64,000 nt of DNA from an uncultured Actinomycetota bacterium (lineage in GTDB: Bacteria > Actinomycetota > Actinomycetes > Actinomycetales > CAWJMD01). The stretch lies in contig OY970255.1 in the NCBI GenBank assembly GCA_963715595.1, positions 155,796-219,795 of the forward strand. The letters run 5' to 3'. Positions 5,466-58,760 of this stretch are shown here, in pieces. The position numbers were made by a program, and so were the translations under genes. Within the stretch, counting starts at the first letter, position 1, and each line of letters starts with the position of its first letter. The notes under the pieces were generated by a model. The model saw nothing but the letters and a program-made list of their open reading frames with translations, had not been told where the DNA came from and did no database searches.

Positions 5466-6106
5466 GCGGCGCCACCGCCACCCCGCCGGGACCCACGACG
5501 AGCAGCCGCACCCCGGCCCGTTCCTCGTCGTGGGCCTCGGCAACCCGGGGCCGCAGTACGCCGGCAACCGGCACAACGTCGGGCAGATGGTGCTCGACGA
5601 CGTGGTCGCCTCCGCGCGCGAGCAGTGGCGCACCCACAAGTCGCGGGCCGCGGTGGCCGAGGCTGCGTCTCGGCACCCTGCCCGGCGGCGCGCCCGGCCC
5701 CAAGGTCGTGCTGGCCAAGCCGTCGTCCTACATGAACGTCTCGGGCGGCCCGGTCGCCGGCCTGGCCCAGTTCTTCTCGATCGCCGCCGAGCAGGTGCTG
5801 GTCGTCCACGACGAGCTCGACCTGCCGTTCGGCACCGTGCGGCTCAAGCGCGGGGGCGGCGAGGGCGGCCACAACGGGCTGCGCGACATCAGCAAGGCGC
5901 TGGGCAGCAAGCAGTACGTCCGCGTCCGGGTCGGCATCGGGCGCCCGCCCGGACGGATGGACCCGGCCGACTTCGTGCTGCGAGACTTCAGCCCGACCGA
6001 GCGCAAGGAGCTGCCGTTCCTGCTCGGCGACGCCGCCGACGCGGTCGAGCTGGTCGTCCTGCGCGGCCTGGTGGCCGCCCAGCAGGTCGTGCACCGCCCG
6101 ACCTGA
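5462..6106 (+). CDS. pth: peptidyl-tRNA hydrolase; two compensating frameshifts
   Basis: [21 protein letters not shown] and YMNVSG...[13 protein letters not shown] are Pth signatures. The likely start is the GTG at 5462, which overlaps the rplY stop (GTGA) in frame 2. The core motif is in frame 1 and returns to frame 2 near 5685. The start is uncertain; the track ORF starts at 5530. Confidence 0.8.
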
Positions 6107-11142: not shown

Positions 11143-11955
11143 GTGCGCCCAGACGAGCAGCCCGGACCCGGTGCCGCGACCGACCACGCGAGCGACCACG
11201 CGCTGGCGCGCGAGCTGGCGGCGCGTGCGGGGGAGGAGCTGGTGCGGGTGCGCGCCGAGCTCGAGGCGGCCGGGACCCCCGCGGCCGAGGTCAAGGACCG
11301 TGGCGACGCGGTGTCGCAGGAGCTGCTCGCGCGGCTGCTGGCCGAGCACCGTCCGGGCGACGCCGTGCTGAGCGAGGAGAGCACCGACGACCCCGTCCGG
11401 CTGCAGGCCGACCGGGTCTGGATCATCGACCCGCTCGACGGGACCCGGGAGTTCTCCGAGCCGGGCCGCACCGACTGGGCCGTGCACGTCGCCCTCTGGT
11501 CGCGCGGCGAGCTGGTGGCCGGCGCCGTCGGTCTGCCGGCGGCCGGCCTGGTGCTCGCCACCGACGACCCGCCGCCGGTGCCCCGGCGTCCGCAGGCACG
11601 GCTCCGCCTGGCGGTCAGCCGCTCCCGCCCGCCCGCCTTCGTCGACGAGCTGGCGACGCTGCTCGACGCCGAGCTGGTGCCGATGGGCTCCGCCGGGGTC
11701 AAGGCGGTCTCGGTGCTGCGCGGCGACGCCGACGCCTACGTGCACGCCGGCGGCCAGTACGAGTGGGACAACGCCGCCCCCGCCGCCGTCGCGGCCGCGT
11801 CGGGCCTGCACACCAGCCGCGTCGACGGCTCGCCGCTGCGCTACAACCAGCCCGACCCGAGCCTGCCGGACCTGCTGGTGTGCCGTCCGCAGGACGCGTC
11901 CGTCATCCTGGACGCCGTCCGCAGCATCGCCGACCGAGGGGCCGTCCGCGCATGA
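11143..11955 (+). CDS. cysQ: 3'(2'),5'-bisphosphate nucleotidase (PAP phosphatase)
   Basis: Intact ORF with IMPase-fold motifs LSEES, WIIDPLDGTREF and YEWDNAAP. The stop overlaps the cysD start (ATGA). Confidence 0.8.
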   Translation: MRPDEQPGPGAATDHASDHALARELAARAGEELVRVRAELEAAGTPAAEVKDRGDAVSQELLARLLAEHRPGDAVLSEESTDDPVRLQADRVWIIDPLDGTREFSEPGRTDWAVHVALWSRGELVAGAVGLPAAGLVLATDDPPPVPRRPQARLRLAVSRSRPPAFVDELATLLDAELVPMGSAGVKAVSVLRGDADAYVHAGGQYEWDNAAPAAVAAASGLHTSRVDGSPLRYNQPDPSLPDLLVCRPQDASVILDAVRSIADRGAVRA

Positions 11956-12863
11956 CCGACGTCTCGCAGTACCAGCTCACGCACCTGCAGGCCCTGGAGT
12001 CCGAGGCCGTCTTCGTCTTCCGCGAGGTCGTCTCCGAGCTCGAGAAGCCCGTGCTGCTGTTCTCCGGCGGCAAGGACTCGATCGTGATGCTGCACGTGGC
12101 GCGCAAGGCGTTCCACCCCGCACCCATCCCGTTCCCCGTGCTGCACGTCGACACCGGGCACAACTTCGCCGAGGTGCTCGAGCACCGCGACGCGACCGCC
12201 AGCGCCCTGCGCGTGCAGCTGCACGTCGCCAGCGTCCAGGACGCCATCGACCGCGGCCTCGTGCACGAGCCGCCGGACGGCACGCGCAACCGGATCCAGA
12301 CCCCGGTGCTGCTCGACGCGCTCGAGAAGCACCAGTTCACAGCGATCTTCGGCGGCGCGCGCCGCGACGAGGACAAGGCCCGCGCCAAGGAGCGGATGTT
12401 CTCGTTCCGCGACGAGTTCGGCCAGTGGGACCCGAAGAACCAGCGTCCCGAGCTGTGGAACCTCTACAACGGGCACATCCACGTCGGCGAGAGCATCCGG
12501 GTGTTCCCGCTGTCGAACTGGACCGAGCTCGACATCTGGCGGTACATCCAGCAGGAGCAGATCGACCTGCCGAGCATCTACTTCGCCCACGAGCGCGAGG
12601 TGTTCGACCGCGGCGGCATGCTCTACGGGGTGCACGAGGTCTGCCGCCCGCGCCCGAACGAGACCGTCTTCACCGAGACCGTGCGGTACCGCACCGTCGG
12701 TGACGCGAGCCTCACCGCGGCCGTGCGCTCCGACGCCGACACGATCGAGAAGATCATCGACGAGATCGCCACCACCCGCATCACCGAGCGCGGGCAGACC
12801 CGCGGCGACGACAAGTTCAGCGAGGCCTCCATGGAGGACCGCAAGCGCGAGGGGTACTTCTGA
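11952..12863 (+). CDS. cysD: sulfate adenylyltransferase subunit 2
   Basis: Intact ORF: LLFSGGKDSIVMLHVA (PP-loop), FGGARRDEDKARAKERMFSFRD, YFAHEREV, VGDASLT. Full-length CysD. Confidence 0.95.
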   Translation: MTDVSQYQLTHLQALESEAVFVFREVVSELEKPVLLFSGGKDSIVMLHVARKAFHPAPIPFPVLHVDTGHNFAEVLEHRDATASALRVQLHVASVQDAIDRGLVHEPPDGTRNRIQTPVLLDALEKHQFTAIFGGARRDEDKARAKERMFSFRDEFGQWDPKNQRPELWNLYNGHIHVGESIRVFPLSNWTELDIWRYIQQEQIDLPSIYFAHEREVFDRGGMLYGVHEVCRPRPNETVFTETVRYRTVGDASLTAAVRSDADTIEKIIDEIATTRITERGQTRGDDKFSEASMEDRKREGYF

Positions 12864-14116
12864 TGGACCTTCTGAGGTTCGCCACGGCCGGCTCGGTCGA
12901 CGACGGCAAGAGCACGCTCATCGGCCGGCTCCTCTACGACACCAAGAGCGTCCTGCAGGACCAGCTCGAGGCCGTCGAGCGGGTCAGCCGCGAGCGCGGC
13001 GACGAGTACGTCAACCTGGCGCTGCTCACCGACGGGCTGCGCGCCGAGCGCGAGCAGGGCATCACCATCGACGTCGCCTACCGGTACTTCTCCACGGCGC
13101 GGCGCAACTTCATCATCGCCGACACCCCCGGGCACATCCAGTACACCCGCAACATGGTGACCGGGGCCTCGACCGCCGACCTCGCGCTCGTCCTGGTCGA
13201 CGCCCGCAAGGGCATGCTCGAGCAGAGCCGCCGGCACGCGTTCCTGGCCACCCTGCTGCAGGTGCCGCACCTGGTGCTGTGCGTCAACAAGATGGACCTG
13301 GTCGGGTACGACCAGCAGGTCTTCGAGCAGATCCGCAGCGAGTTCCGCGCGTTCGCCGCCAAGCTGCAGGTGCCCGACCTGGTCGTCATCCCGGTCTCGG
13401 CGCTCGCGGGCGACAACGTCGTCACGCGCTCGGAGAACATGCCCTGGTACGAGGGCTCGAGCCTGCTGCACCACCTCGAGAACGTGCACGTCGCCAGCGA
13501 CCGCAACCTGATCGACGCGCGGCTGCCGGTGCAGTGCGTGATCCGGCCGCAGTCGGGCACGCACCTGGACTACCGCGGCTACGCGGGCCAGGTCGCGGGC
13601 GGGGTGCTGAAGCCCGGTGACGAGGTGATGGTGCTGCCGTCCGGCTTCACCTCGCGCATCGCGGCGATCGACACCGCCGACGGCCCGGTCGACGAGGCCT
13701 TCCCGCCGATGTCGGTCACCGTCCGGCTCGAGGACGAGCTCGACGTCTCGCGCGGCGACGTGATCTGCCGTCCGCACAACGCGCCGACGCCGACCCAGGA
13801 CGTCGACGCGATGCTGTGCTGGATGGACGAGCAGAGCACGCTCGAGCCGCGCCGCAAGTACCTGGTCAAGCACACCACGCGCACCGCGCGGGCGATGGTC
13901 AAGGACCTGCAGTACGTGCTCGACGTCAACACGCTGCACCGCGACGAGAAGGCGACGTCGTTGGGGCTCAACGAGATCGGCCGGGTGCAGCTGCGCACGA
14001 CGCAGCCGCTGCTGGTCGACGAGTACCGCCGCAACCGCACCACGGGGGCCTTCATCCTCATCGACGAGGCCACCCACCGCACCGTCGCGGCGGGCATGAT
14101 CACCTCGACGGCGTGA
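12863..14116 (+). CDS. cysN: sulfate adenylyltransferase subunit 1 (GTPase), without a fused APS kinase domain
   Basis: Intact ORF: FATAGSVDDGKSTLIGRLL (G1), DTPGH (G3), NKMD (G4). 417 aa. The start overlaps the cysD stop (TGATG). Confidence 0.95.
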   Translation: MDLLRFATAGSVDDGKSTLIGRLLYDTKSVLQDQLEAVERVSRERGDEYVNLALLTDGLRAEREQGITIDVAYRYFSTARRNFIIADTPGHIQYTRNMVTGASTADLALVLVDARKGMLEQSRRHAFLATLLQVPHLVLCVNKMDLVGYDQQVFEQIRSEFRAFAAKLQVPDLVVIPVSALAGDNVVTRSENMPWYEGSSLLHHLENVHVASDRNLIDARLPVQCVIRPQSGTHLDYRGYAGQVAGGVLKPGDEVMVLPSGFTSRIAAIDTADGPVDEAFPPMSVTVRLEDELDVSRGDVICRPHNAPTPTQDVDAMLCWMDEQSTLEPRRKYLVKHTTRTARAMVKDLQYVLDVNTLHRDEKATSLGLNEIGRVQLRTTQPLLVDEYRRNRTTGAFILIDEATHRTVAAGMITSTA

Positions 14117-20705: not shown

Positions 20706-20799
20706 CCCGCGGTGGACTCGGTCCGCCGGGAGCTGTGGCCCACCGTGGCCGGGCGTCCGGTGCCGCCCTCGGTCGTGCGCGCGGGCAGGGCCACCTTCC

Positions 20800-21640
20800 G
20801 TGGCTTACGGCGCGGCCACCGCCGCGGTCCGGCCGCTGCCGGAGTTCCTCCTGATCGGCGCCAAGCGCGCGGGGACGACCTCGTTCTTCTTCGACCTGCT
20901 GGCCCACCCCGGGGTGCTGCCGCTGTTCCCGTCCGCGCGGCTGCTGCCCAAGCAGCGTGACGGCAAGGGCCCGCACTTCTTCGACAGCGAGTACGCGCGC
21001 GGGCTGCGCTGGTACCGGGGGCACTTCCCGTCCCGGGTCGAGCGCGCCCGGGTGGCCCGCACCGCCGGCCCGGTGCTCACCGGGGAGGCCTCGCCGTACT
21101 ACCTGTACCACCCGCTCGCTCCTGCGCGGGCCGCGACGGTGGTGCCCGACGCCAAGCTGCTCGTGCTGCTGCGCGACCCCGTCGAGCGCACCTTCTCGCA
21201 CTGGCGCGAGCAGGTGCGCAACGGCGTCGAGACGCTCGGCTTCGAGGCCGCGCTCGAGGCCGAGGCCTCGCGGGTCGGCGACGACGAGCAGCGGCTGCGC
21301 AGCGGCGAGCATCACCCGCAGCTTCGCGCACGAGCAGCAGTCGTACGCGGCCCAGAGCGAGTACGACGCCGGGCTGGCCCGCTGGCTCGAGCACTACCCG
21401 CGCGACCAGGTGCACGTGATGGTGAGCGAGGACTACTACCGCGACCCGGCGCAGGTCTGCGACGGCGCGCTGCGCTTCCTCGGCCTCGAGCCGCTGGGGG
21501 AGCGCACGGGCAAGACCCTGAACGCCGCGCCCGGCGCGCGCCTGGAGCCCGCCACCCGCACCATGCTCACCGAGCGCTTCACCCCGTCGGTGCGCCGGGT
21601 CGAGGACCTGTGCGGACGGACGTTCCCGTGGCTGCGGTAG
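20800..21640 (+). CDS. sulfotransferase 2 (class A); 1 frameshift
   Basis: PEFLLIGAKRAGTTSF and KLLVLLRDPVERTFSHW. The frame goes 1>2 near 21305 and the protein ends ...GRTFPWLR*. The start may instead be the GTG at 20712 with another indel. Confidence 0.75.
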
Positions 21641-36276: not shown

Positions 36277-37196
36277 AGGCCGACCAGGTCGCGACCCACG
36301 AGCCGGCCGAGCGCGTCGATCTCGGGCCGCATCTGCGCGAGCAGGCGCGCGCGCAGCTCGGGGTCCATCCGCGCGCCGGCGACCGGGGCCGCGTTCAGGC
36401 GGTAGAGCAGCTTCCAGGCGCCGTCGCGCCACACGGCGGTGCGCAGGCGGGCCGGCACGGCCCGGCGGACCAGCGCGCGTCCGGGCGGGTCGCGCAGCAC
36501 GTCACGCAGCACCGCGCTGCGCGAGCGGCTGCGCTGCTTCTCGACCGTCGTGCCCGGCCGGTGGGTGTCGTCGAGATCGAGGAAGCGCAGCAGGGCGGCG
36601 TGGGTGCCCTCCGGGTCGTCGCGCAGGTCGTCGAAGACCACGACGTGGGTGCGCTCGGGCCCGAACACGTCCAGGAAGCGGGCGACCTGCGGGCTCAGGG
36701 TCGCGGCGTCGACGTAGCCCACGCCGGGCGGGAACGGCGCGCGGGGCGGGCGCCGGCCCGGCTCGCCGTCGCGCTCGAGCGCCTCGGCGAAGTCCTCGAG
36801 GTCCTCCTCGCCGGTGAACAGCCGCATGCCGTGCAGCGAGAACATCATGTCGACGGGGTTGCGGACCGCGACCACCACGCGCGCCTGCGGCGAGAAGGAC
36901 GCGATCTCCTGCGCGGCGGTCGCGGAGCGCAGGTACCAGGCCGACGCCTCCAGCAGCCGCGCCTCCTCGCGCGCGCCCGAGAACAGGTCGAGGTACTCCT
37001 GCTCGGAGCGGTCCGACAGCGGCAGGTCGCGGCCGAAGAAGTTGGGCTCCTTCAGCGGGCAGGCGAACACGTCGGGGTGCGCGGCGAGCCGGGAGTACAG
37101 CGTGGTCGTGCCGCACTTGGCCGCGCCGACGACGAAGGTGTCGGGTCGGCGCGCTGCGGCGGCCCGGACGGCCCGCCCCGAGGTCACGGGCTCCAC
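36255..37196 (-). CDS. sulfotransferase 3 (class A)
   Basis: Intact from the GTG at 37196: DTFVVGAAKCGTTTLY (PSB loop), RVVVAVRNPVDMMFSLH (PB motif). Confidence 0.8.
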   Translation of the reverse strand: MEPVTSGRAVRAAAARRPDTFVVGAAKCGTTTLYSRLAAHPDVFACPLKEPNFFGRDLPLSDRSEQEYLDLFSGAREEARLLEASAWYLRSATAAQEIASFSPQARVVVAVRNPVDMMFSLHGMRLFTGEEDLEDFAEALERDGEPGRRPPRAPFPPGVGYVDAATLSPQVARFLDVFGPERTHVVVFDDLRDDPEGTHAALLRFLDLDDTHRPGTTVEKQRSRSRSAVLRDVLRDPPGRALVRRAVPARLRTAVWRDGAWKLLYRLNAAPVAGARMDPELRARLLAQMRPEIDALGRLVGRDLVGLWCSPAS

Positions 37197-46305: not shown

Positions 46306-47548
46306 CTAGCGCACCAGCGCCGCCGCCACGTGCTCGCCGATGAGCAGCGACGCCGTGGCCGCGGGGGAGGGCGCGTTCAGCACGTGCACGACCGGGCCCT
46401 GGCGCCGCAGCGCGAAGTCGTCGTGCAGCCGGCCGTCGCGGCGCACCGCCTGGGCGCGCACCCCGGCCGGGGACGGGACGAGGTCGTCGGCCCGCAGGTC
46501 GGGCAGGAGCCGCTGCACGGCCCGCACGAACAGCACGTCGGACGCCGCGCGCGCCACCTCGGCCGCGCCGTACCGCCAGTGCCGCCGGGCCAGCCGCCAC
46601 GCGCCCGGGAAGCGCAGCGTCGCGGCGAGGTCGGACGCCGAGACCTCGCGCCGGCGGTAGCCCTCGCGGGCCAGCGCCGGCACCGCGTTCGGGCCGACGT
46701 GGACGTGCCCGTCGACGCCCCGGGTGAGGTGCACGCCCAGGAACGGCAGGTCGGGGTCCGGCACCGGGTAGACCAGGCCGCGGACGAGGTGCTCGGCGCC
46801 CGGCGCCAGCGCGCGGTACTCGCCGCGGAACGGCAGCACGCGCAGGTCCTCGGCGGGGTCGTCGTCGCGCGCCGCGGCGCCCGCGAGCCGGTCGGCGTGC
46901 AGCCCCGCGCACACGGCGACGGCGTCGGCGTCGAGCACCCACCGTCCGTCGCCGTCGTCGACGAGCAGCTGGGCGCCGTCGCCGTGCGGGCGCAGCCCGA
47001 GCACCCGCGTCCCGAGCCGCAGCTCGGCCCCCGCGTCGTGCAGCAGGCCGGCGAGCCGGTGCGCGAGCGCGGAGTAGTCGCAGACCCCGGTGGTCGCCAC
47101 GTGCAGCGCCGCCACGCGAGCGCACGTGCGGCTCGTGCTCGCGCGCCCGGTCCGGTGAGAGTCGCTGCACGGGAACGCCGTTCGCCTCCCCGCGTCGGGC
47201 CAGCTCAGCCAGGCGCGGCAGCTCGCGCTCGTCTGCGGCCACCACCAGCTTGCCCGTGGTGCGGTACGGCACGTCGTGCTCGGCGCAGAACGCCGCCAGC
47301 CGCTCGACCGCCCGCGGCGTCAGGCGCGCCTTGAGCGAGCCGGGCGCGTAGTACAGGCCGGAGTGCACGACACCGGAGCTGTGCCCCGACTGGTGCTGCG
47401 CCCAGCCCTCCTCCTTCTCGAGCACGACGACGTCGCGGCCGGCGCGCACCAGCGCCCACGCCGCGGCCAGCCCGACCAGGCCGCCGCCCACCACCACCGT
47501 CCGACCCACGCGTCCACCGTAGGCGGCGGCCCGTAGGGTCGCCCGCAT
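46306..47548 (-). CDS. lhgO: L-2-hydroxyglutarate oxidase-like FAD oxidoreductase; 1 frameshift
   Basis: VVVGGGLVGLAAAWAL...VVLEKEEGWAQHQSGHSSGVVHSGLYYAPGSLKA is the LhgO/YgaF signature. The frame shifts near 47115. The start ATG at 47548 or a nearby GTG is uncertain. Confidence 0.7.
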
Positions 47549-48564
47549 GGCGCAGGGTGCGAACGGGCTGGTGCTGCTGCACGTCGCGGCGCAGGTGCCC
47601 GCGGGGCTGCTGACCCGCGACGGCTGGCAGGCCCTCGACCAGGCCGACGAGGTGCTCGCCCGCGAGGTGCCGGACGGCTGGGGCCCTGCGCTCGAGGCGG
47701 CCGGCGTCGCCGTGCACCCGGTCGACGGCACGCCCGACGAGGTGGCCACGCGGCTGCTGACCGCCGCCGCGTCCGGACGGGTGGTCTGGCTCGTCCCCGC
47801 CGGTGACGACGGCGGCGTGGCACGCGCACTGACCCAGGCCCTGGTGCGGGGCGCGGGACCCGCTGCGCCGCAGGTGGAGTCGCTGCTCGGCTCGTGGGAG
47901 GTCCCCGGGTCGACGCTGCTCGAGCTGGTGCAGGTCATGGACGTGCTGCGCTCGCCCGGCGGCTGCCCGTGGGACGCCGAGCAGACCCACGCGTCGCTGC
48001 TGCCGTACGCGCTCGAGGAGGCGTTCGAGCTCGCCGAGGCGGTCGAGACCGGCGACCGCGAGCACCTGGTCGAGGAGCTCGGCGACCTGCTGCTCCAGGT
48101 CGTGTTCCACGCCCGGGTCGCGCAGGACGACGCCGACGAGCCCTTCGACGTCGACGCCGTGGCCGGCGGCATCGTGCGCAAGCTGCGCCGGCGCCACCCG
48201 CACGTGTTCGGCGACGTCGACGCGCCGACCGCGGCGCACGTCGAGGCGAACTGGGAGCAGATCAAGAAGGCCGAGAAGGGCCGGGAGTCGGTGCTCGACG
48301 GCGTCCCGGTGGCGCTGCCCGCGCTCGCCCGCGCCGACAAGGTGCTCGGCCGCGTCGCCCGCACCGGTCTCGACGTCCCGCTCGGCTCCGCGGACGGCTC
48401 GACCGGCGAGCGGCTGCTCGCCGAGGCCGTGCGCGCCCGCGGCCGCGGCGAGGACCCGGAGGCGGCGCTGCGCGCGTCGGTGCGCGCGCTGGAGGCCCGC
48501 GCGCGCGCGGCCGAGGCCGGACGACCGGCACCCAGCACGTGGCTGCGCGCGGTGCCGTCGTCGA
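47547..48564 (+). CDS. mazG: MazG nucleoside triphosphate pyrophosphohydrolase (long actinobacterial form); no stop codon before the next gene
   Basis: LRSPGGCPWDAEQTHASLLPYALEEAFELAEAV...EELGDLLLQVVFHA...RRHPHVFGD...WEQIKKAEK. It reads straight into the downstream nucleotidyltransferase in the same frame, so the end coordinate is nominal. Confidence 0.75.
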
Positions 48565-49383
48565 TGGACGCCGCCGTGGTGACCCAGATCGACGAGCGGC
48601 TCGCCGCGGTCGCGCGCGAGGAGGGCGTCGCGATCCCGCTGGCGATCGAGAGCGGCAGCCGCGCCTGGGGGTTCCCGTCGCCCGACAGCGACTACGACTG
48701 CCGGTTCGTCTACCTGCGCGCCACTGACGACTACCTCTCGCCGTGGCTGCCGCGCGACGTCCTGGAGACCCCGCTCGACGGGCTGCTCGACGTCGGCGGC
48801 TGGGACCTGCGCAAGGCGGTGCAGCTGCTGGTGCGCGGCAACGCCGTCGTGCTGGAGTGGCTGCGCTCGCCGATCGCCTACGGCGTCGACACCGCGTTCC
48901 GCGACTCCTTCCTCGAGCTGGCCGAGCAGGTGGCCGACCCCGACCTGCTGCGCCGCCACCACCTGCACGTCGGCCGCGGCCAGTGGGAGAAGGTGGCCGC
49001 CGCGGTCGAGCACGACGCCGGGGCGGTGCCGCTCAAGCGGCTGTTCTACGCGCTGCGTCCGGCCCTGACGCTGCGCTGGCTCGACCAGCACCCCGGCCTG
49101 GTCGTGCCCCCGATGGACCTGCCCGGCCCTGGTCACCGGCACCGAGCTGCCCGCCGGCGTGGCCGACGCGGTCGCAGAGGCGGTGGCGCGCAAGGCGGTC
49201 AGCCGCGAGGCCGAGGCCGGCCAGGTGCCGGCGGCGGTGCTCGGGCTCGTCCGCGACACCCTGGCCCGCGACGACCCGGCCCCGGCGGCGCCCGACGAGC
49301 GACGCGCGGACGAGGCCCGTCGGCAGGTGGCCGGCTGGTTCCGGGGTGCCGTCGCGCGCTGGGCGCCCGACCCCGCGCCCTGA
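48565..49383 (+). CDS. pol-beta-superfamily nucleotidyltransferase domain protein (RlaP-like); 1 frameshift
   Basis: MDAAVVTQIDERLAAVAREEGVAIPLAIESGSRAWGFPSPDSDYDCRFVY carries the GS...D.D nucleotidyltransferase motif. The frame shifts near 49125 and the protein ends ...RWAPDPAP*. Confidence 0.55.
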
Positions 49384-49479
49384 TCGTCCGACCTGACCGC
49401 AGCGCGCGCCGCGACGCGACGGTGCACCTCGAGGGCGGCCGCGTGGTCGGCCCGGACCCGTCCGCGCCCCCGCCGTAGG

Positions 49480-51492
49480 GTGTCGGCCGTGAGCGTCCCG
49501 GAGCACGACGACCACCGTCCGCTGCGGATCGCGATGGTGGGGCAGAAGGGCCTCCCGGCCACCTGGGGCGGCATCGAGCACCACGTCGAGCAGGTGGGGC
49601 GGCGGCTCGCCGAGCGCGGCCACGAGGTCACGGTCTACTGCCGCGGCACCTACGGCGAGCAGATCCCGGACGAGCACCTCGGCATGCGGCTGCGCCGCAC
49701 CTCGACCCTCGGCACCAAGAGCCTGGACGCCATCGTGCACAGCGCGACGTCCTCGCTCGCCGCGGTCGCCGCGCGCGCCGACGTGGTGCACTACCACGCG
49801 ATCGGGCCGGGCCTGGTGGCCCCGCTGCCGCGGTACCTGACGTCGGCGGGCGTCGTGCTCACCGTGCACGGGCTCGACCACGCCCGCGACAAGTGGGGCC
49901 GGGCCGGACGCGCCGCGCTCGGCGCCGCCCACCTGATGAGTCCCCGCGTGCCGCACGAGCTGGTGGTGGTCTCGCAGGCGCTGCAGCAGCACTACCGCAG
50001 CCGGTTCGGCCGCGAGACCGTGCACGTGCCCAACGGCGTCACGCTGCGCGACCTGCCGGCCGACCCGACCGCGGTGCTCGACCGGCTCGGGCTGCGCGCC
50101 GGCGGCTACGCCCTGTTCGTCGGACGGCTGGTGCCCGAGAAGCGACCCGACCTGCTGCTGCGCGCGTTCGCCCGGGTCCCCACCGACAAGCGGCTGGTGC
50201 TGGCCGGCGACTCCTCGTTCACCGACGACTACGTGGCCGGGCTGACCGCGGCGACCTCGCGCGACCCGCGGGTGGTGATGGCCGGGTTCACCGTCGGCGA
50301 CGACCTCGCGGCGCTGTACGCGGGCAGCGGCGCGGTCGTGCAGCCGTCCTCGCTGGAGGGGTTGCCGCTGACCCTGCTGGAGGCGATCGGGCACGACGCC
50401 CCGGTGGTGGCGTCCGACATCGCCCCGCACGTCGAGGTGCTCGGCGCGGGCTCGCCGCGCCACCTGCTGTTCCCGGTCGACGACGAGGACGCCCTGGTCG
50501 CGGCGCTCACCCGCGTGCTCGCCGACCCGGGCAGCGCGGCGGGCGCCGACGCCCGACGCTGCGCGACGACGTGCTCGCCCGGTACAGCTGGGACGCGGCC
50601 ACGACCCGCCTCGAGGACGTCTACCGCCGGGTGGCCGGGCGGGCGGCCGGCCAGGAGCGACGCGAGCGCCTCGTGCACGGGGCCCGCAGCCGCTCCCGGT
50701 CGGTGGTGCGCGCGGCGCGCCGGCGCGCACGCCGTCCGGACGAGCGGCCCCTGCCCGACTTCCTGGTCGTCGGCGCGATGCGCAGCGGCACCACCTCGCT
50801 GTACGCCGACCTGGCGCGCCACCCGCAGGTGCGTGCCCCGCTCGCCAAGGAGCTGCACTACTTCACGCTGCACCACGACCGCGGCACCGACTGGTACCGG
50901 CGCTGCTTCCCGCTGCTGGCCGAGGGCCAGCAGACCTTCGAGGCCACGCCGTACTACCTCTACGACCCGCAGGTGCCCGCCCGGGTGGCGGCGACGCTGC
51001 CGGACGCCCGCTTCGTGGTGGTGCTGCGCGATCCCGTCGACCGGGCCGTCTCGCACTACCTGCACACCCGCCGCACCGGTGAGGAGCCGCTCGCGCTCGC
51101 CGAGGCGCTGGCCGCCGAGCCCGAGCGCCTCGCCTGCGGCGGCGGACGCGTCCCCCCACCGGCGGCACGAGGCGGTGCGCCGGTACTCCTACCTGGCGCG
51201 CAGCCGGTACGGCGAGCAGCTGGCGCGCTGGTTCGACCACGTCGACCGCGACCGGGTGCTGGTGCTGCGCACCGAGGACCTCGCGCAGCGCCCGCAGGAG
51301 GTGCTCGACCGCGTCCACGAGCACGTCGGTCTGCCCGCGTGGCGCGCGGACGGTTTCACCCGGCACACCCGCCGGCGCGAGGTGGCCGGCACCGACGTCC
51401 CGGACGACCTGGTGGCCGCGCTGCGCGCCGAGCTCGAGCCGGACGTGGCGCGGCTGACCTCGCTGCTCGGGTGGGAGCGCGGCTGGTGGTGA
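49480..51492 (+). CDS. GT4 glycosyltransferase fused in-frame to sulfotransferase 4 (class A); 2 frameshifts
   Basis: The GT4 part is RIAMVGQKGLPATWGGIEHHVE...FVGRLVPEKR...EGLPLTLLEAIGHDAPVVASD...LARYSWDAATTRLEDVYRRV. An Arg-rich linker of about 40 aa follows, then PDFLVVGAMRSGTTSL and RFVVVLRDPVDRAVSHY. There is no stop in any of the three frames between 50580 and 50770. Shifts lie near 50555 and 51140. Confidence 0.7.
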   Translation: MSAVSVPEHDDHRPLRIAMVGQKGLPATWGGIEHHVEQVGRRLAERGHEVTVYCRGTYGEQIPDEHLGMRLRRTSTLGTKSLDAIVHSATSSLAAVAARADVVHYHAIGPGLVAPLPRYLTSAGVVLTVHGLDHARDKWGRAGRAALGAAHLMSPRVPHELVVVSQALQQHYRSRFGRETVHVPNGVTLRDLPADPTAVLDRLGLRAGGYALFVGRLVPEKRPDLLLRAFARVPTDKRLVLAGDSSFTDDYVAGLTAATSRDPRVVMAGFTVGDDLAALYAGSGAVVQPSSLEGLPLTLLEAIGHDAPVVASDIAPHVEVLGAGSPRHLLFPVDDEDALVAALTRVLADPGSAAGADARRCATTCSPGTAGTRPRPASRTSTAGWPGGRPARSDASASCTGPAAAPGRWCARRAGAHAVRTSGPCPTSWSSARCAAAPPRCTPTWRATRRCVPRSPRSCTTSRCTTTAAPTGTGAASRCWPRASRPSRPRRTTSTTRRCPPGWRRRCRTPASWWCCAIPSTGPSRTTCTPAAPVRSRSRSPRRWPPSPSASPAAADASPHRRHEAVRRYSYLARSRYGEQLARWFDHVDRDRVLVLRTEDLAQRPQEVLDRVHEHVGLPAWRADGFTRHTRRREVAGTDVPDDLVAALRAELEPDVARLTSLLGWERGWW

Positions 51493-51499
51493 CGGGCGG

Positions 51500-52420
51500 T
51501 CAGGGGACGGCGTAGCCCCGGCGGCGCAGCGCGGGCCCGATCGCGGCCTCGACGTCGGCCACCTGCGCGGGCGTGAGCTCGCGGCGGTAGGCGTCGACCC
51601 GCCCGGCGCCCAGGCTGTGGCGCGCCACCCCCGCCTCGAACCGCGGGTCGGGGTCGAGCCCGGCGAGGTCGAGCAGGCCGCGCACCGCGGCGGCGGGGTC
51701 GGCGAGCAGGTCCTCGTAGCGCAGGTCGAGCCAGGCCCCGGCCGGGTGGCGCTCGCGCGCCTGCTCGGCCGCCTCGACCAGCAGCTGCCAGCCGAGCGCC
51801 GCCAGCACCGGGAACGAGCGGCCCGACCGCTCCCACACCTGCTGCAGGGCAGGCGGCAACGGGCCGAAGAGCCACCGGTCGGGGCCCTGCCAGCCGTCCC
51901 ACCAGCCCATCTGGAGCCACGAGCTGGCGACCGCGCGGCCGTCGCGCACCACCTCGACCACCCGCAGGTCGGGCAGGGCGGCCCGCAGGAAACCCGTCCG
52001 GGGCCACCCGGTCACGTGCAGCACGAGCACGTCGGCGCGCTGGGCCTCGAGCCGCTGCTCGACGAAGTCGCGCAGCCGGCGCTCGACGTGCGGGGTCATG
52101 TCCTCGGCGACCAGGTCGCGGACGGGGCGCGACCACCCGGCGACGACGTGCCGGTCGAGCAGGTCGTACGCCTCGGACGGGCGGACGCCGATCCGCCCGC
52201 GCTGCAGGACCCCGACCGCCTCGGACCAGGCCCGCAGGGCGGGCGGACGCGGTGCGGTGGCGTGCCGGTACAGGGGACCGTTCCAGCGGCCGCGCAGCCC
52301 GAGGCGGGAGAGCCTGTCGTCCAGGCCGGAGACGAACGCGGTGCGGGGGTGGCGCGCGAGCAGCTCGGTGACGACCGTCGTGCCGCTGCGTCCGGTGCCC
52401 GCCACGACGACCACCCTCAC
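51500..52420 (-). CDS. sulfotransferase 5 (class B: G-x-x-RSGT[TS] P-loop type)
   Basis: Intact from the GTG at 52420 (GTGA overlap with the upstream stop): VRVVVVAGTGRSGTTVV...VEVVRDGRAVASSW...LRYEDLLADP. Confidence 0.75.
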   Translation of the reverse strand: MRVVVVAGTGRSGTTVVTELLARHPRTAFVSGLDDRLSRLGLRGRWNGPLYRHATAPRPPALRAWSEAVGVLQRGRIGVRPSEAYDLLDRHVVAGWSRPVRDLVAEDMTPHVERRLRDFVEQRLEAQRADVLVLHVTGWPRTGFLRAALPDLRVVEVVRDGRAVASSWLQMGWWDGWQGPDRWLFGPLPPALQQVWERSGRSFPVLAALGWQLLVEAAEQARERHPAGAWLDLRYEDLLADPAAAVRGLLDLAGLDPDPRFEAGVARHSLGAGRVDAYRRELTPAQVADVEAAIGPALRRRGYAVP

Positions 52421-53508
52421 CCCGGTGGCCCCGCAGGTCCCCGGGCGGCGACGGCGGCGCGCTCCTCGACGGCGGCCAGGTCGAGGGTCGCGAGCTCGGC
52501 GTCGACCGGGTCGGGGGCCGCCACCACGGCGCGGCGGGCCCGGCGGGAGGCCGCGCGCCGGTCGGTCAGGCCGAGGACGGCGCGGGTGGGGGCGGTCATG
52601 GCCTGCACCAGCGCGCAGCGCCCGGCGCTCAGCCCGCCGCGCCACTCGCCGTCGTCACGGACCTCGACACGACCGGTCACGTGCCGCGAGGGGTTGCCGG
52701 CGACGGCGTGGGTGGTGGAGATGCGCAGCGTCGAGCGGTCGACGAAGGGCAGCGACCGCGCCGGCGCGCCGAGCCGCTCGAGCACCGGAGCCAACGCGGT
52801 CTCGGGGTCGCGCACGAGGTCCTCGTACCGCAGCCGCAGGTGCCGGTCGTCGCGCGGGCGCCAGGCCACGGCGGCCACCAGGTTCCACAGCAGCCACAGC
52901 GTGGCGCTCTTCAGCACCGGCTGGCGGTCCATCGGCGGGTCGTCGTCGCGCTGGCGGCTCGCCCGCGTCCGCAGCCACGAGTAGGCGGCGGCACGGGGGT
53001 CGCGCACCAGGTGCAGCACGGTGACCTCGACGCCGGGCAGCTCCTGCAGCAGCAGCCCGTACAGCGGCAGCTTCGAGGAGTCGACGACGACGTCGGCGCC
53101 GCTGCGCGCGCGCACCGCGCGGTACAGGTCGACCAGGAGCGCGTCGTCGGGGTGCGAGGGCAGCGGCGTGAGCCCGACCAGGGAGCGCAGCAGCACCTGG
53201 GGGACGCGACGGGCCCGGGTGCGGTGCCACAGCCGGGCGGCCACCCCCCGGGCCACGGGCCGCACCGGGCCGTCGGGGACGACGGCCGACATCACCGACC
53301 TCCACTCCGGGCAGGTGCTGAACGCGTGCCCGCAGCCGCAGCGCTCGTCCTGCACGGCTCCGCGCTGCCACAGGAAGCGCAGCTCGCCGGCGGACACGAC
53401 GCCGGGGACCTGGCCGAGGATGGTGGCGAGCAGCGTGCTGCCGCTGCGTCCGGTGCCCGCGACGAACAGGACGCGCACGGGGTCTCGGTGCGGTGCGTGC
53501 TCAGCCAC
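52417..53508 (-). CDS. sulfotransferase 6 (class B)
   Basis: Intact: VRVLFVAGTGRSGSTLL...CGCGHAFSTCPEW...VLHLVRDPRAAAYSW...LRYEDLVRDP. The start GTG at 53508 overlaps the upstream GT4 stop by 8 nt. Confidence 0.75.
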   Translation of the reverse strand: MAEHAPHRDPVRVLFVAGTGRSGSTLLATILGQVPGVVSAGELRFLWQRGAVQDERCGCGHAFSTCPEWRSVMSAVVPDGPVRPVARGVAARLWHRTRARRVPQVLLRSLVGLTPLPSHPDDALLVDLYRAVRARSGADVVVDSSKLPLYGLLLQELPGVEVTVLHLVRDPRAAAYSWLRTRASRQRDDDPPMDRQPVLKSATLWLLWNLVAAVAWRPRDDRHLRLRYEDLVRDPETALAPVLERLGAPARSLPFVDRSTLRISTTHAVAGNPSRHVTGRVEVRDDGEWRGGLSAGRCALVQAMTAPTRAVLGLTDRRAASRRARRAVVAAPDPVDAELATLDLAAVEERAAVAARGPAGPPG

Positions 53509-54730
53509 GCCCCACACCTTGGTAGAGGTCGGACAAGGTGTCCAGGTGCCGTCGGGCGGAGAAGTCCTCCAGGACTCGTGCGCAGCCCGTTCGGCCCATG
53601 GCCGTCACCCGTCCGGGGTCGGCCGAGCAGCGACCCCAGCGCCGCGGCCAGGGCGGCCGGGTCGTCGGGCTCGACGAGCAGCCCGTCGACCCCGTCGTCG
53701 ACCAGCTCGGGCAGCCCGCCCATCCGGGTCGCGACCACGGGCACCCCGAGCGCGTACGACTCCAGCACGGTCATCGGCTGGTTCTCGTACCAGCGGGACG
53801 GGACGAGGGTCGCGACGGCGCCGCGCAGCAGGTCGGCCACGCCCTCGCGGGTGAGCCGGCCGAGGAAGCGCACCCGTCCCGGGGCCACCTGCGTCGGCCA
53901 GCCGCTCGAGCGCGGCGCGCTCGGGCCCGTCGCCCGCCACGTCGAGGTGGGCGCCGGGCAGCATCGCGACCGCGCGGACAGCGGTGTCGACCCCCTTCTC
54001 GGCCGACAGCCGCCCGGCGACGGCGAACCGGCCCGGCACCGGCTCGCGGGGCGCCGGCGGACGGGGGCGGGTCGACGAAGTGCGGGACGACGTGGAGGCG
54101 GCCGTGGTCGACCCCGGCGTCGCGGACCACTCCGGCGAGGAACCGGCTGGGGCTCACCAGGGCGTCGACGCGGCCCCAGGCGCCGGTGAGCCGGTGCAGG
54201 CCGGACTCGACCGACAGCAGCGCGCTCGCCGGCAGGGAGCCGCCCTTGCAGCGCCGGCGGGCGGCCTGCAGCGCCCCGTGGTCGACGCACGCGCGGCAGG
54301 GCCGTCCGTGGTCCAGCATCTGGTAGCTGGGGCACGCGACCTTGTAGTCGTGCAGGGTGAGCACGGCGGGCACGCCGCCGCGCACCGAGGGCGCGAGCAC
54401 CGAGGGGGAGAGCTGGTGGTACACGTTGTGGAAGTGCACGGCGTCCGGACCGAACCGGCGCACGGCCTGCGCCAGGCGCGACGCCGCCTCGCGTGACCAG
54501 ACCATGCGGGCGGCGGCACGCAGGCCGGCCGCGCCGGACGGGGCAGGATCGAGCTCGACGAAGGAGGCGAACGTGTCGGCCAGAGGAAGGTCCGGGGGGT
54601 CCTCGGGGTGGCGCATGCCCCACACCTGCACCTCGTGCCCGTCGCGGCGCTGCAGGTCGGCGAGGTCGAGCAGGTACGACTCGGCACCGCCGCGGCGGTG
54701 CACGAACTTGTTGACGTGCAGGATCCGCAC
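53501..54730 (-). CDS. GT4-family glycosyltransferase; at least 3 frameshifts
   Basis: VRILHVNKFVHRRGGAESY...HFHNVYHQLSPSV...FAVAGRLSAEKGVD...SRWYENQPMTVLESYALGVPVVATRMGGLPELVDDGVDGLLV...LDTLSDLYQGVGRG*, reassembled from three frames. Confidence 0.75.
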
Positions 54731-54762: not shown

Positions 54763-55698
54763 GTGCGGGCGGTCGCGGTGAGCGAGCAGCCCCGGGGGGC
54801 GTTGGCGTACGGGTGGCGCCGGGTGCGCCGGCACGTGCGCTGGGGCCGTGCCGAGGGCTGGGGGCGGCTGGTCGAGGAGGACCGGCTCGACCCGCGCGAG
54901 CGGGCGCGCACGGCCCTGGCCAAGCACCGCTGGCGCCGCCGGCACGGCGTCGCGCCGGGCACGGCGCGACCGGTCTACGTCGTCGGCCTGCAGCGCTCCG
55001 GCACGAACATGCTGACCCGCGGGCTCGACGGCGCGCCCGAGGTCGAGGTGCGGAACGAGAACGACCGCACCCTGTTCCGCCGGTTCCGGCTGCGCGAGGA
55101 CGACGTGCTCGTGCGCACGGTGCGGCGCAGCCGGCACCGCGTCGTCCTGGTCAAGCCGCTGTGCGACTCGCACCAGGTCGACCGGCTGCTCGACCTGCCG
55201 GACCTCCCGGGCGGACGCGCCCTGTGGGCGTTCCGCGAGCCGCACGCGCGGGCGCGCTCGGAGGTGGCGCGGTTCGGACCGGCGAACCTGCGTGCGCTGC
55301 AGGCGATCGCGGCCGGCGACACCGCCGGACGCTGGCAGGCCGCCCGGCTCGACGACGACGCCGTCGAGGAGGTGCGTCGGCTGCGGCCCGAGCGGCTCAC
55401 GCCGTACGAGGGCGCGCTCGCGTTCTGGGCCGTGCGCAACGCGCTGTGGTTCGACCTCGGTCTCGACGCCCGCGAGGACTGCCTGCTGGTCGACTACGAC
55501 GCGGTCGTCGCCGACCCCGCCCCCGCCGCCGAGCGCCTGTGCGCCTTCGTCGGCCTGCCCGCCCGCTCCGACCTGCTCGGCCACGTCGTGCCGCGCAGCA
55601 CCCACCACGACGACCACCCGGAGGTCGATCCGCTCGTGCTCGCCCTGACCGACCGCACCTGGGAGCGGCTGCGCGCCGCGGCGAGGACGGCGTCGTGA
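54763..55698 (+). CDS. sulfotransferase 7 (class B)
   Basis: Intact ORF: PVYVVGLQRSGTNMLT...RVVLVKPLCDSH...LVDYDAVVADP. Confidence 0.65.
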   Translation: MRAVAVSEQPRGALAYGWRRVRRHVRWGRAEGWGRLVEEDRLDPRERARTALAKHRWRRRHGVAPGTARPVYVVGLQRSGTNMLTRGLDGAPEVEVRNENDRTLFRRFRLREDDVLVRTVRRSRHRVVLVKPLCDSHQVDRLLDLPDLPGGRALWAFREPHARARSEVARFGPANLRALQAIAAGDTAGRWQAARLDDDAVEEVRRLRPERLTPYEGALAFWAVRNALWFDLGLDAREDCLLVDYDAVVADPAPAAERLCAFVGLPARSDLLGHVVPRSTHHDDHPEVDPLVLALTDRTWERLRAAARTAS

Positions 55699-57124
55699 GC
55701 GCCGCCGGCCGCCGCTGGAGGGTCGCCGCCGTCGGGCTCGTCGTCGCGGCGCTCGCCCTCGCCGGCTGCACCGACCCCGACGACGACCCGGCGCCCGACC
55801 CCACGGCCGCACCCTCTTTCACCGACGGCGAGGACGGCGGCGACGACGAGCCGCCCGCGGCGTTCGAGGGCGGCGTGCTCGGCGCCAAGTGGGACCAGGC
55901 GCGCACCGACGCGTTCGACCCCTACCTGCGCGAGCTCGGCACCGGCCCGACGTTCTCCGAGGTCGTGTGGTGCGAGATCGAGCCCACGCAGGGCGAGCGC
56001 GACTGGACCTCGCTCGACGCCTTCGTCGAGCGCGCCGACGAGCTGGCCGGCACGCTGCTGCTGAAGATCCGCGTGGGCCAGTGCTGGACGACGGGCCAGG
56101 CGCCGCAGCAGGTGCGCGGCAACAAGACCGAGTCGGGCGTCCCGCGCGACACCGACGAGTACCGCGACTTCGTCACCGAGCTGGTGACGCGCTACTCGGC
56201 GCAGGGCGTCAGCCGCTACGCCGTCGAGAACGAGGTGAACTCGCCGAGCTTCTGGGCCGGCACGCCGCAGGAGTACCGCGACCTCGTCGAGGTCGCGGCC
56301 GACGCGATCCGCGCCGCCGACCCCGCCGCGCTGGTGCTCGACTCCGGGCTGAGCAGCGTCTCGTACGGCGCCGGTGCGGCACGGCTCCTGCTCGACGAGG
56401 GACGCGACGACGACGCCGTGGCGGCGTGGAACACCTACTACGAGCGGCGGATCGGGACGCGCGGACGCAACATCGTCGAGGCCGCCGACGCCGAGGAGCT
56501 CGAGGCGCTGCTCGAGCGCGAGCAGGCGGCGCGCAACATCGAGCACCTCGAGCTCGGCGTCCGCGCTGGCGGACGACGGCGTGGTCGACGTCCGCCAGGT
56601 GCACTTCTACGAGACCTGGCGCGGCGTGCCCGTCCTGTTCGAGCTGCTGCGGGCCACCACTCCCGACGACGTGCCGCTCGAGCTGTGGGAGGTCGGCCTG
56701 TTCCGGCGGGGGCAGGAGGTACCGATCGACCAGGCGGCCGACGAGACGGTGCAGACCAGCGCGGCGCTGCTCGCGCAGGGCGCGGCGCTCGTGGTCTGGC
56801 TCCCGCTGGCGTTCAACCCGTCCGGGCGCAACCCGGACGAGCCGCGGACGGGCCTGCTGGAGCCCCAGGGCGAGGTGCGTCCCACCGGCGAGCGCTACGC
56901 CGAGCTCGCCGCGGCGGCGCGCGACGCCGTCCCGGTCGCGGTCGCCACCGACGACGTCGTCGGCGTCGTGCCTGGAGAGGCCGGAGGGGTCGACGGCCTT
57001 CGTGTGGTCGCTCGACGGCGACGTCGAGGCCCAGAACGCCGGCAGCGAGGTGCGCCTCACGACGGCACCCTCGCGGGTCGAGGTGGAGGGTTCGGTCGAG
57101 GACTTCGTGGCCGGCCTGCCGTGA
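55695..57124 (+). CDS. lipoprotein, glycoside-hydrolase-like TIM-barrel (clan GH-A-type ENE motif); 2 frameshifts
   Basis: The GTG overlaps the previous stop (GTGA). The lipobox is VVAALALAGC. EIEPTQGERDWTSLDAFVERA...VSRYAVENEVNSPSFW. Shifts lie near 56560 and 56975, and the protein ends ...SVEDFVAGLP*. Confidence 0.55.
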
Positions 57125-57955
57125 CGCACCACCTGGTGCTCGTCGGCGGGCTGCACCGCAGCGGCACCAGCCCGCTCGCCCGGGCGCTGGGCAGCCACCC
57201 GCAGGTGAGCGCGCTGACCGGCACCGGGGTGGTCGAGGACGAGGGGCAGCACCTGCAGGACGTGTACCCGGTCGCCAAGACCTACGGCGGCTCAGGGCGT
57301 TTCGCTCTCGACCCCCGGTCGCACCTCACCGAGGCGTCGCCGCTCGCGACGCCCGACGCGGGGGCCCGGCTGCGGGCGGCCTGGGACCCGTTCTGGGACC
57401 TGTCCCGGGGCTGGCTGGTCGAGAAGTCGCCACCGAACCTGGTGATGGGCCGGTTCCTGCAGCACGTGCTCCCCGGTCAGCTCGCTCGTCGTCGTGGTGC
57501 GCCACCCGGTCGTGGTCGCGCTGTCGACGAAGAAGTGGCGTGGCGTGCGCACTCTGCGGCCCGGCAAGTACGAGACGCTCGCCTCGCTGGTCGGCCACTG
57601 GGTGCGCGCGCACCAGGTGCTGCGCGACGACCTGGCGCACCTCGCGCGCGTGCACGTCGTGCACTACGAGCACCTGCTCGCCGACCCGCGCGCCGAGCTC
57701 GACGCCCTCGGCGGCTTCCTCGGGCTGCCCGGGCCGGTGCCCGACGACGCCTGCGTCGCGGCCACAGCGACCGGTACGAGCGGGCGTGGTCGCGGCTGGG
57801 GAACCGGCTGCACCCGCTGCACGCGGCGGCGTCGTGCGGTGCTGAGCCGGTACGCCGACGAGGTCGCCGACCTCGGGTACGACCTCGCCGACGTCGCGGC
57901 CCCGCCGCGACGGGTGCTCGCGGCACGGGCCGGGCACCCGGGCCCTCAGCGGTAG
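57121..57955 (+). CDS. sulfotransferase 8 (class B); about 3 frameshifts
   Basis: The GTG overlaps the previous stop (GTGA). HHLVLVGGLHRSGTSPLA...LVEKSPPNLV...VVVVRHPVVVALS...VVHYEHLLADP. Confidence 0.7.
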
Positions 57956-58760
57956 CCGAGCTCGCGCAGCAGCCGCCGGCTGGTCCACCACACCAGGACG
58001 CGACCGAGCGGGTCGAGCTCGCGGCGGTGCGCCCCGGCACGCCCGGCGTAGACGGCGGAGTCGGTGCCCTCGGCGCGGCGCCGGTCGCGGGCCTGGGCGT
58101 GGTAGCGCGGCGGCACGTCGTGCTGGTGCTCGTCGATGCGCAGCATCGCGGGGTCGAACTGCTCGCCGAGGAAGTCGGTGAGCCGGCGCACGGTGGCCTC
58201 CTGGTCGCAGACCAGGTCCTCGTAGCGCACCTCGTGGAACTGGTTCTGCGGCAGCGCACTCCTGCGCCGCCCGCACCGCCCGCACGTACCGCGGCCACTT
58301 CACCGCGGCCTTGAGGGCCGGCACGTAGCCGAACCGCTTGCGGTGGCTCACGACCACGTCGCGGCCGTCGCGCAGCACGTGCACGACCTGCGCGTCGGGG
58401 AAGAGCGGCGAGCACGAAGTCGAGCTGGAGGGCGTACCGCGGCGTCTTGTCGACCCAGCGGGCCTTGCCGCGGCGGGCGGCGTAGTCGGCGTGCACCCCG
58501 GCGAACATGCCCGCGATCCGCGCGAGCCACTCCTCGCGGCTGAACCCGAACCGCTCCAGCGCGCTCCCAGTCCTCGTGCACGACCCGGCGCAGGTCGACT
58601 CGAGGAAGCGGGTCTCGGGCCCGCAGCTGATCCGCGAGTGCGAGTCGAGCAGGAGCCGCACCAGGGTGGTGCCGGAGCGCTGGCAGCCGACGACGAAGAC
58701 CGGCGGCCCGCCCGGCTCCTCGACGGACCGGCGACCGGTCGGGCCGGGGTCGGCGGTCAC
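57946..58760 (-). CDS. sulfotransferase 9 (class B); at least 4 frameshifts
   Basis: PPVFVVGCQRSGTTLVRLLL...KARWVDKTPRYAL...VVHVLRDGRDVVVSH...VRYEDLVCDQEATVRRLTDFLG...LLRELGYR*. It converges on and overlaps the end of sulfotransferase 8 by 10 nt. Confidence 0.7.

Follow-up and report, generated by a model that had tools for sequence, protein, structure and literature searches.

A predicted glycosyltransferase-sulfotransferase fusion in an uncultured actinobacterium, read through two probable assembly errors

Introduction

Can a single actinobacterial polypeptide both add a sugar and sulfate it? The question is raised by a gene in a 64,000-nucleotide stretch of DNA, here called the window, from contig OY970255.1 of an uncultured Actinomycetota bacterium (assembly GCA_963715595.1). 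On its forward strand, an open reading frame (ORF) at 49480..51492 (+) stays open across 670 codons. A reading of the sequence alone, made without database searches (the sequence-only reading), described this ORF as an in-frame fusion in which a family 4 glycosyltransferase (GT4) domain continues through an arginine-rich linker into a complete class A sulfotransferase (ST) domain, and judged the architecture unusual. Below, we present evidence from intact relatives that the GT4-ST fusion is real, together with evidence that the window's own copy of the gene, as assembled, is interrupted by two frame changes that are most likely not biological.

Gene clusters that bring glycosyltransferases and sulfotransferases together have been described before, as putative loci for sulfated exopolysaccharides. 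The xss (synechan) cluster of Synechocystis is of the Wzx/Wzy type and contains both (PMC8205485), as does wps-1 of Actinoplanes missouriensis, in which WpsH was assigned a heparan-sulfate-sulfotransferase domain (PMC13390465). The two sulfotransferases of wps-1 are separate gene products (PMC13390465), and in the synechan paper, searched by text, fused or bifunctional enzymes are not mentioned (PMC8205485). In the literature searched for glycosyltransferase-sulfotransferase fusions, none is described. For actinomycetes, a sulfated exopolysaccharide was proposed in 2026 in the wps-1 paper, with experimental proof still awaited (PMC13390465).

Results

Intact relatives carry both domains in one frame

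We joined three in-frame pieces of the window's gene into a 669-amino-acid conceptual protein and used it as a search query. The matches include uninterrupted GT4-ST orthologs of 665-669 amino acids, which fall into four independent 90%-identity clusters (P0001, P0002, P0004 and P0005) and in which both Pfam domain sets lie within one ORF. P0001 (667 amino acids) and P0002 (665 amino acids) are each 87% identical to the read-through protein; P0004 (669 amino acids), whose cluster has one further member, is 68% identical by search and 70% by alignment; and P0005, a truncated copy, is 64% identical. The P0002 cluster (at least 90% identity) has nine members: seven proteins of 665-667 amino acids including P0002 itself, on contigs of up to 81 kb, and two partial proteins from Angustibacter speluncae (WP_460435092.1 and WP_460435807.1) on separate short contigs. 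A. speluncae is the sole organism-named member of the fused clade.

In the alignment, the fused orthologs are collinear with the window protein, linker included, and none of the fused relatives has a stop codon at the GT4/ST junction. They share with the window the same domains, the same linker and, in the contigs of two relatives (L001 and L015), the same downstream genes, ST(-), ST(-) and GT4(-), but differ from it in having no frame breaks. On this comparative evidence, the GT4-ST fusion is real, and the possibility that orthologs are always split, which the sequence-only reading had raised, gives way to a set of uninterrupted proteins. The architecture is already present in public protein collections, where it goes unnamed: the sources call the fused orthologs only 'glycosyltransferase involved in cell wall biosynthesis'.

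The window's gene changes frame twice

The G+C content of the region is 77%, and of all 191-codon segments taken from the six frames of the whole stretch, 37% are free of stop codons. At this composition, an open frame alone is no evidence. A Pfam scan of the three forward frames placed GT4 in frame 1 (amino acids 29-353) and the N-terminal two thirds of ST in frame 3 (codons 49482+3n), with only the C-terminal third of ST in frame 1. The coding signal follows frame 1 as far as ~50555, moves to frame 3 until ~51132 and then returns to frame 1. Within frame 3, the peptide YSWDAATTRLEDVYRRV-AGRAAGQERRERLVHGARSRSRSVVRAARRRARRPDERPLPDF-LVVGAMRSGTTSLY continuously spans the end of GT4, the linker and the start of ST. 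The sequence-only reading was therefore correct that the GT4 end passes through an arginine-rich stretch into ST without a stop, and our translation of 50580-50770 confirmed its observation that none of the three forward frames contains a stop there.

What did not hold is the equation of this fusion with the single 670-amino-acid ORF. Its single-frame translation differs from the fusion protein, with ~190 residues out of frame, and both motifs that bind the sulfate donor 3'-phosphoadenosine 5'-phosphosulfate (PAPS) fall inside these mistranslated residues of the annotated product. That product, P0003, is encoded on a 3.80-Mb contig, comprises 667 amino acids from GTG 49489 and carries Pfam domains of GT4 only; together with the relatives, it indicates that the gene probably starts at GTG 49489 and not at GTG 49480. 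Because no stop arises at 77% G+C, the gene caller reports a protein that is open but wrong.

Both domains retain their motifs once read in the correct frame

Read in their respective frames, both GT4 and ST have all of their catalytic motifs intact. The GT4 domain (49489..50630, +), of the GT-B fold and predicted retaining type, is 64-65% identical to stand-alone GT4 orthologs. In the frame-1 translation, it scored 65.6 bits against PF13439 (cut-off 28.5), 55.0 against PF13579 (29.7), 78.2 against PF00534 (26.4) and 80.7 against PF13692 (27). Its EX7E motif, the mark of GT4 enzymes, reads E-GLPLTLL-E in frame 1 (50356..50382, +) and is invariant across the ortholog alignment. The last ~25 codons of the domain (LRDDVLARYSWDAATTRLEDVYRR, after ~50555, +) lie in frame 3, the earlier ones in frame 1. 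Among NCBIfam equivalogs that name a GT4 specificity or donor sugar, none scored over its cut-off, the best being TIGR04047 with 110 bits against a required 260.

The arginine-rich linker follows in frame 3 (~37 codons; 50631..50741, +) and is homologous to the basic N-terminal leader of stand-alone STs. It leads into a predicted PAPS-dependent carbohydrate ST domain (50742..51489, +; frame 3 to ~51132 and frame 1 from ~51133) that resembles heparan-sulfate 3-O-sulfotransferases (3-OSTs) and N-sulfotransferases (NSTs). The frame-3 piece (50562-51131) scored 53.9 bits against PF13469 (cut-off 27) and 34.9 against PF00685 (22), whereas the C-terminal third in frame 1, scored alone, reached 19.5 and 17.0, under the Pfam cut-offs. 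Compared with solved structures, the ST domain of an ortholog matched 3-OST-3 (PDB 1T8T, E 8e-26), NDST1 (E 3e-18) and the bacterial ST 3RNL. The 'complete class A sulfotransferase' of the sequence-only reading thus survives as an ST domain of the 3-OST/NST-like kind, while the label 'class A' could not be matched to a standard name.

Three elements align between this domain and its best matches among solved structures, 3-OST-3 (1T8T, 6XKG), 3-OST-1 (1VKJ) and 3RNL: the 5'-phosphosulfate-binding (5'-PSB) loop, an E-x-H segment and the RDPxxRxxS motif. The 5'-PSB loop, GAMRSGTTS (50772..50798, +; frame 3), aligns with GVKKGGTRA of 3-OST-3. KELHYF (50847..50864, +) aligns with the AEPHFF segment, in which the Glu and His are catalytic in 3-OSTs. 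The 3'-phosphate-binding motif, RDPVDRAVSHY (51027..51059, +; frame 3), aligns with RDPVTRAISDY, and its residues R, D, P, R and S are invariant in the orthologs. Identity to these proteins is only ~28%, however, and the window's domain differs from the 3-OSTs in being bacterial, cytoplasmic and fused to GT4. It also carries an Arg at the position of the 3-OST Lys in the 5'-PSB loop, a substitution shared with neighbouring bacterial ST genes (GRSGTT).

Structure work was done on the intact ortholog P0002 (87% identity). The AlphaFold2 model, with a mean predicted local distance difference test score (pLDDT) of 90, shows a GT-B domain and an ST domain with a single long helix (residues 368-414) between them; the linker part of the helix has a pLDDT of ~60-80. 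Foldseek matched the GT half of the model to GlgM, BshA, MshA, PimA and WaaG (E 1e-14 to 1e-19) and the ST half to 3RNL, 6XKG and 1T8T (template modelling (TM) score ~0.7-0.8 on target). No chain spanning both halves was found with Foldseek.

The two indels are unique to the window

In DNA alignments of the gene with its counterparts in L001, L015 and a third contig, L014, the window is one base short at ~50554. At ~51135-51141, it has one base more than L015 and seven more (6+1) than L001. All remaining length differences are multiples of three. Both differences recur against contigs from the sequencing runs of four relatives (~90-94% identical), which insert one base behind 50552 or 50556 and omit one at 51131 or 51135. 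A tblastn search with the L001 protein changes frame between high-scoring segment pairs (HSPs) at 50559-50562, and a codon-usage model sets the switch points at 50558/50559 and 51132/51133; this model, a Viterbi frame tracker, confuses strands at the present G+C content and was used only to place the two switches. The first switch (frame 1 to 3, the window being one base short) is bracketed at 50550..50560 (+) by DNA alignment, the relatives' contigs, tblastn and codon model, and the second (frame 3 to 1, the window being one base over) at 51131..51141 (+) by DNA alignment, the relatives' contigs and codon model. Both indels are unique to the window: the intact relatives all have one base more at the first site and one base fewer at the second.

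Frame breaks recur across the assembly

Comparable breaks occur in housekeeping and polysaccharide genes elsewhere in the window, where glmU, rplY, pth and wbaP are each split across two or three frames without stops. GlmU (window ~450-2000) covers positions 5-72 of its NCBIfam profile in one frame and 86-439 in a second; L25, the rplY product (4763-5300), covers 3-113 and 119-154 of its profile in different frames; and Pth (5497-6094) covers 2-45 and 53-171, again in different frames. WbaP (6618-7877) is split over three frames. A tblastn comparison with the intact genes of L001, a syntenic contig, puts the number of frame switches needed from 46.3 to 59.8 kb at about 12. An lhgO-like oxidase gene needs one, and so does mazG-rlaP (47547-49478, +; a 643-amino-acid ORF) near 49105-49124; the GT4-ST gene needs two; a divergently oriented GT4 gene (53504-54730, -; 408 amino acids in L001) needs three; a 472-amino-acid unannotated cluster gene, a Wzy candidate by position only, needs two; and two further ST genes need one and two. 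The gene prs reads as one ORF.

Because glmU, pth and rplY are broken in the same way and the region as a whole requires about 12 switches, we consider the two indels in the GT4-ST gene to be most likely errors of assembly or sequencing rather than biology. The locus would then probably encode one bifunctional GT4-ST enzyme of ~667 amino acids (~73 kDa), as predicted from the sequence read through both errors.

Several observations weigh against this interpretation. The strain was sought among public sequencing runs and is not present there (best word share 0.15 for the gene and 0.24 for 40-49 kb), and two raw-read runs with the same species label contain no read at 90% identity or more over the locus; the indel comparison rests on relatives. 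The indels coincide with the protein's two most variable loops, and neither site holds a long homopolymer run, the usual place of long-read indel errors. For CysQ, CysD, CysN and two ST genes, tblastn returned one HSP each, and one frame, by the codon model only, is kept across a ~4-kb run at 42.1-46.2 kb. In the AlphaFold2 model, a predicted TM score of 0.65 leaves the orientation of the two domains to each other unpredicted. Because of the unbroken genes and the run in one frame, the error rate along the assembly is not uniform but patchy.

It is this patchiness that keeps alive, as an unlikely alternative, a real lesion specific to this strain. If the indels were true mutations, the gene would encode GT4, then ~190 out-of-frame residues rich in Arg, Pro and Ala, and then the last third of ST; the ST would be dead and the gene decaying. 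Besides the missing reads and the lack of obvious homopolymers, the concentration of frame breaks in the polysaccharide genes at 46-60 kb, which could also mark an accessory cluster in decay, would fit such a history. It is at odds, however, with the like breakage of glmU, pth and rplY, which a living isolate could not tolerate, and with the good conservation of ST codons outside the indels: read through the switches, the ST domain is 84% identical to that of P0002 and all motifs are intact. As assembled, the window contains two frame changes and does not hold both domains correctly in one uninterrupted frame. With assembly error the most likely cause, we attribute the missing frame to the record and not to the organism.

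Split relatives locate the junction

In four related actinobacterial assemblies (L016-L019), the two halves are encoded separately, by a GT4 gene of 409-422 amino acids and an ST gene of 292 amino acids (ST292) on the same strand and ~4.4 kb apart. Compared with their fused counterparts, the split GT4 is 64-65% and the split ST292 67% identical. The split clusters run in the order L25, Pth, WbaP, CysQ, CysD, CysN, GT4, propeller-like, Fn3, ST (292 aa), ST(-), ST(-) and GT4(-). In L016-L018, the genes between GT4 and ST292 encode a beta-propeller-like protein of 766-771 amino acids and an Fn3 protein of 660-674 amino acids, and no clear orthologs of these two were found in the window. Downstream, split clusters and window have the same adjoining genes, ST303(-), ST338(-) and GT4(-). 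The split GT4 has a C-terminal tail of its own (30-45 amino acids) that is missing from the fusion, and the split ST has its own Shine-Dalgarno sequence (GAGGAGG or GGAAGGA) and GTG start. The start codon of ST292 falls opposite the Val of 'YRRV', encoded in the window by GTG 50631, and the basic leader of ST292 (~45 amino acids) aligns with the fusion linker.

These split genes lend some colour to the idea that GT4 and ST are two proteins in the window as well, with the ST made from an internal GTG (50631 or 50671) and the GT4 stop lost in assembly: split orthologs exist, and GTG 50631 aligns exactly with a stand-alone ST start codon. Yet four diverged, independently assembled clusters are open across the junction with only in-frame changes in length, and, as noted above, no forward frame has a stop at 50580-50770. 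Moreover, no Shine-Dalgarno-like sequence lies at working distance ahead of GTG 50631 in the fused genes, whereas the split STs have one before their start, and L014 has GCG at that position. For these last two reasons, a conserved internal ST start in the fused genes is unlikely, and we rejected it; extra internal initiation beside the fusion product could still occur. That the window encodes two separate proteins is accordingly a very remote prospect. The sequence-only reading had named a stop with a separate start, for example at GTG 50631, as the outcome that would undo the fusion; instead, the junction has no stop and this GTG appears to be the ancestral ST start, stripped of a Shine-Dalgarno-like site. 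Programmed ribosomal frameshifting (-1, then +1), which would yield the fusion without any change to the assembled sequence and could draw on the exact compensation of two shifts in an ORF that stays open, we rejected as next to impossible, given that all relatives encode the protein without a shift, that neither position shows an evident slippery site and that similar switches are scattered through unrelated genes.

The fused genes probably share one origin

In a tree of ST domains, the split STs are the sister group (88/85) of the fused proteins, which are themselves monophyletic (89/89), and a stand-alone ST of Pseudokineococcus is the next branch. The window groups with P0001 and P0002 (100/100). 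The simplest reading of synteny and trees would be one fusion event accompanied by a rearrangement. The fusion would have occurred once, in a small actinobacterial clade that includes Angustibacter speluncae (Kineosporiaceae), when a rearrangement deleted the genes between the ancestral GT4 gene and the 292-amino-acid ST gene and fused the ST, from its start codon or close to it, onto the end of the GT4 core. Because the junction falls at or near this codon, the linker would be the ST's own N-terminal leader.

ST domains of this family have other partners

An exhaustive profile-free search with the ST half, combined with Pfam scans of the matches, recovered two more GT4-ST proteins, P0138 (673 amino acids) and P0167 (647 amino acids), which have the same domain order and are collinear with the window protein. 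Their ST is 45% identical to the window's and has its basic leader as linker, but their GT4 is only 27% identical, and their ST domains lie elsewhere in the ST tree than the fused clade. For these two reasons, P0138 and P0167 are, as judged from sequence and tree, a second and independent GT4-ST fusion event. In P0197 and P0310, an ST of the same family is fused to a GT2 domain, again with the basic ST leader as linker. The architecture that the sequence-only reading called unusual is indeed rare, but it is not unique, as this second GT4-ST fusion and the GT2-ST fusions exist.

The same search listed a nucleotidyltransferase (NTP_transf_5)-ST fusion, P0160, and ST-flippase fusions of the Wzx type with the ST at the N-terminus (P0267, P0307 and others). 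Also among the ST-family fusions listed are P0312-P0315, P0317 and P0319; the partners include a DUF4915/TPR protein. A profile search of genome contigs with the ST alignment returned only stand-alone STs of Rubrobacteraceae (~40% identity), the window's close relatives not being among its matches. These Rubrobacteraceae STs (L002-L013) have an N-terminal extension of 100-150 amino acids that is rich in Lys and Arg (Lys/Arg/Glu) and coiled-coil-like; in the actinobacterial STs, a vestige of this element may persist as the shorter basic leader.

The gene lies in a cluster rich in sulfotransferases

The window has at least seven further ST genes or paralogs, plus CysQ, CysD and CysN. Taken jointly, these genes lie at 51506-52420 (-), 52477-53493 (-), 54778-55671 (+), 57121-57922 (+), 57949-58715 (-), 20758-21369 (+), 36570-37145 (-) and 11194-14104 (+). 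The cluster, of the Wzx/Wzy type, also includes WbaP, a Wzz homolog and GT4 genes, and the syntenic contig L001 has Wzz and flippase genes. From its gene content, the cluster looks like a large locus for a sulfated surface polysaccharide in an actinobacterium.

The upstream context varies among the fused genes. In L001 and L015, two ABC-transporter ATPase genes stand ahead of the fused gene, and L001 has a 949-amino-acid gene upstream as well; in the window, by contrast, the fused gene directly follows mazG-rlaP. MazG-RlaP, itself a fusion with a nucleotidyltransferase, is a single 611-amino-acid gene in L001 (PF03819 and PF10127).

An octamer, CGTAGGGT, lies 7 nucleotides before GTG 49489 (49474..49481, +) and is conserved ahead of the fused gene in L001 and L015. 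The window has two copies (47532-47539 and 49474-49481), each 7 nucleotides 5' of a start codon, namely the mazG ATG 47547 and the GT4-ST GTG 49489; chance alone would give about 0.9 copies per window. A similar sequence, GTAGGGT, occurs ~33-38 nucleotides 5' of the split ST292 genes in L016 and L018. We infer that CGTAGGGT may be a -10-like element (TANNNT-type) of leaderless transcripts.

Discussion

The composition of the predicted enzyme suggests how the two activities may be combined. A long basic helix would join the N-terminal GT4 to the C-terminal PAPS-dependent carbohydrate ST. At the cytoplasmic face of the membrane, GT4 may transfer a sugar from a nucleoside diphosphate (NDP)-sugar to a repeat unit linked to undecaprenyl diphosphate, and the tethered ST may then sulfate the newly added sugar or its neighbour. 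PAPS would be supplied by the cluster's CysD and CysN together with an adenosine 5'-phosphosulfate (APS) kinase, and the by-product 3'-phosphoadenosine 5'-phosphate (PAP) would be cleared by CysQ. Export may proceed through the nearby Wzx/Wzy/Wzz genes, in the manner of a Wzx/Wzy-dependent surface polysaccharide.

A parallel in concept is NDST1 (1NST, 8CCY), the bifunctional heparan sulfate N-deacetylase/N-sulfotransferase, a eukaryotic Golgi enzyme. Like the predicted GT4-ST protein, it unites two successive polysaccharide-processing activities in one polypeptide and has a related C-terminal ST. Its partner domain is a deacetylase and not a glycosyltransferase, however, and the likeness does not reflect a fusion of common ancestry.

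Why should GT4 and ST be joined at all? The fusion has at least two independent origins and has been kept open across diverged members, which argues that GT4 and ST share an intermediate. A bolder reading would make the fusion a substrate-channelling module that, along with the cluster's several other STs and CysQ, CysD and CysN, builds a densely sulfated, glycosaminoglycan-like surface polysaccharide in Kineosporiaceae: with the helix lying on the membrane, the ST would be held over the GT4 product, and the undecaprenyl-linked sugar would be sulfated upon addition. We regard this proposal as tentative and, at present, rather doubtful. If true, it would point to a class of sulfated glycosaminoglycan-like polymer that still awaits experimental demonstration in Actinobacteria.

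For the genome record, the immediate consequence is that the annotated 667-amino-acid product is wrong over ~190 residues. Because high G+C hides many silent frame errors from gene callers, any 'novel' long ORF or fusion in this assembly needs a check by homology.

For the organism, the fusion would couple a single glycosyl-transfer step to a single sulfation step, in a cluster whose several other STs have no assigned order. A single-polypeptide glycosyltransferase-sulfotransferase would also be a convenient first enzyme with which to approach the question of sulfated polysaccharides in actinobacteria (PMC13390465), and a possible tool for the enzymatic synthesis of sulfated glycans. Finally, under the tentative channelling proposal, the fusion would serve as a 'Rosetta stone' that matches GT4 with ST292 in the split clusters of other actinobacteria.

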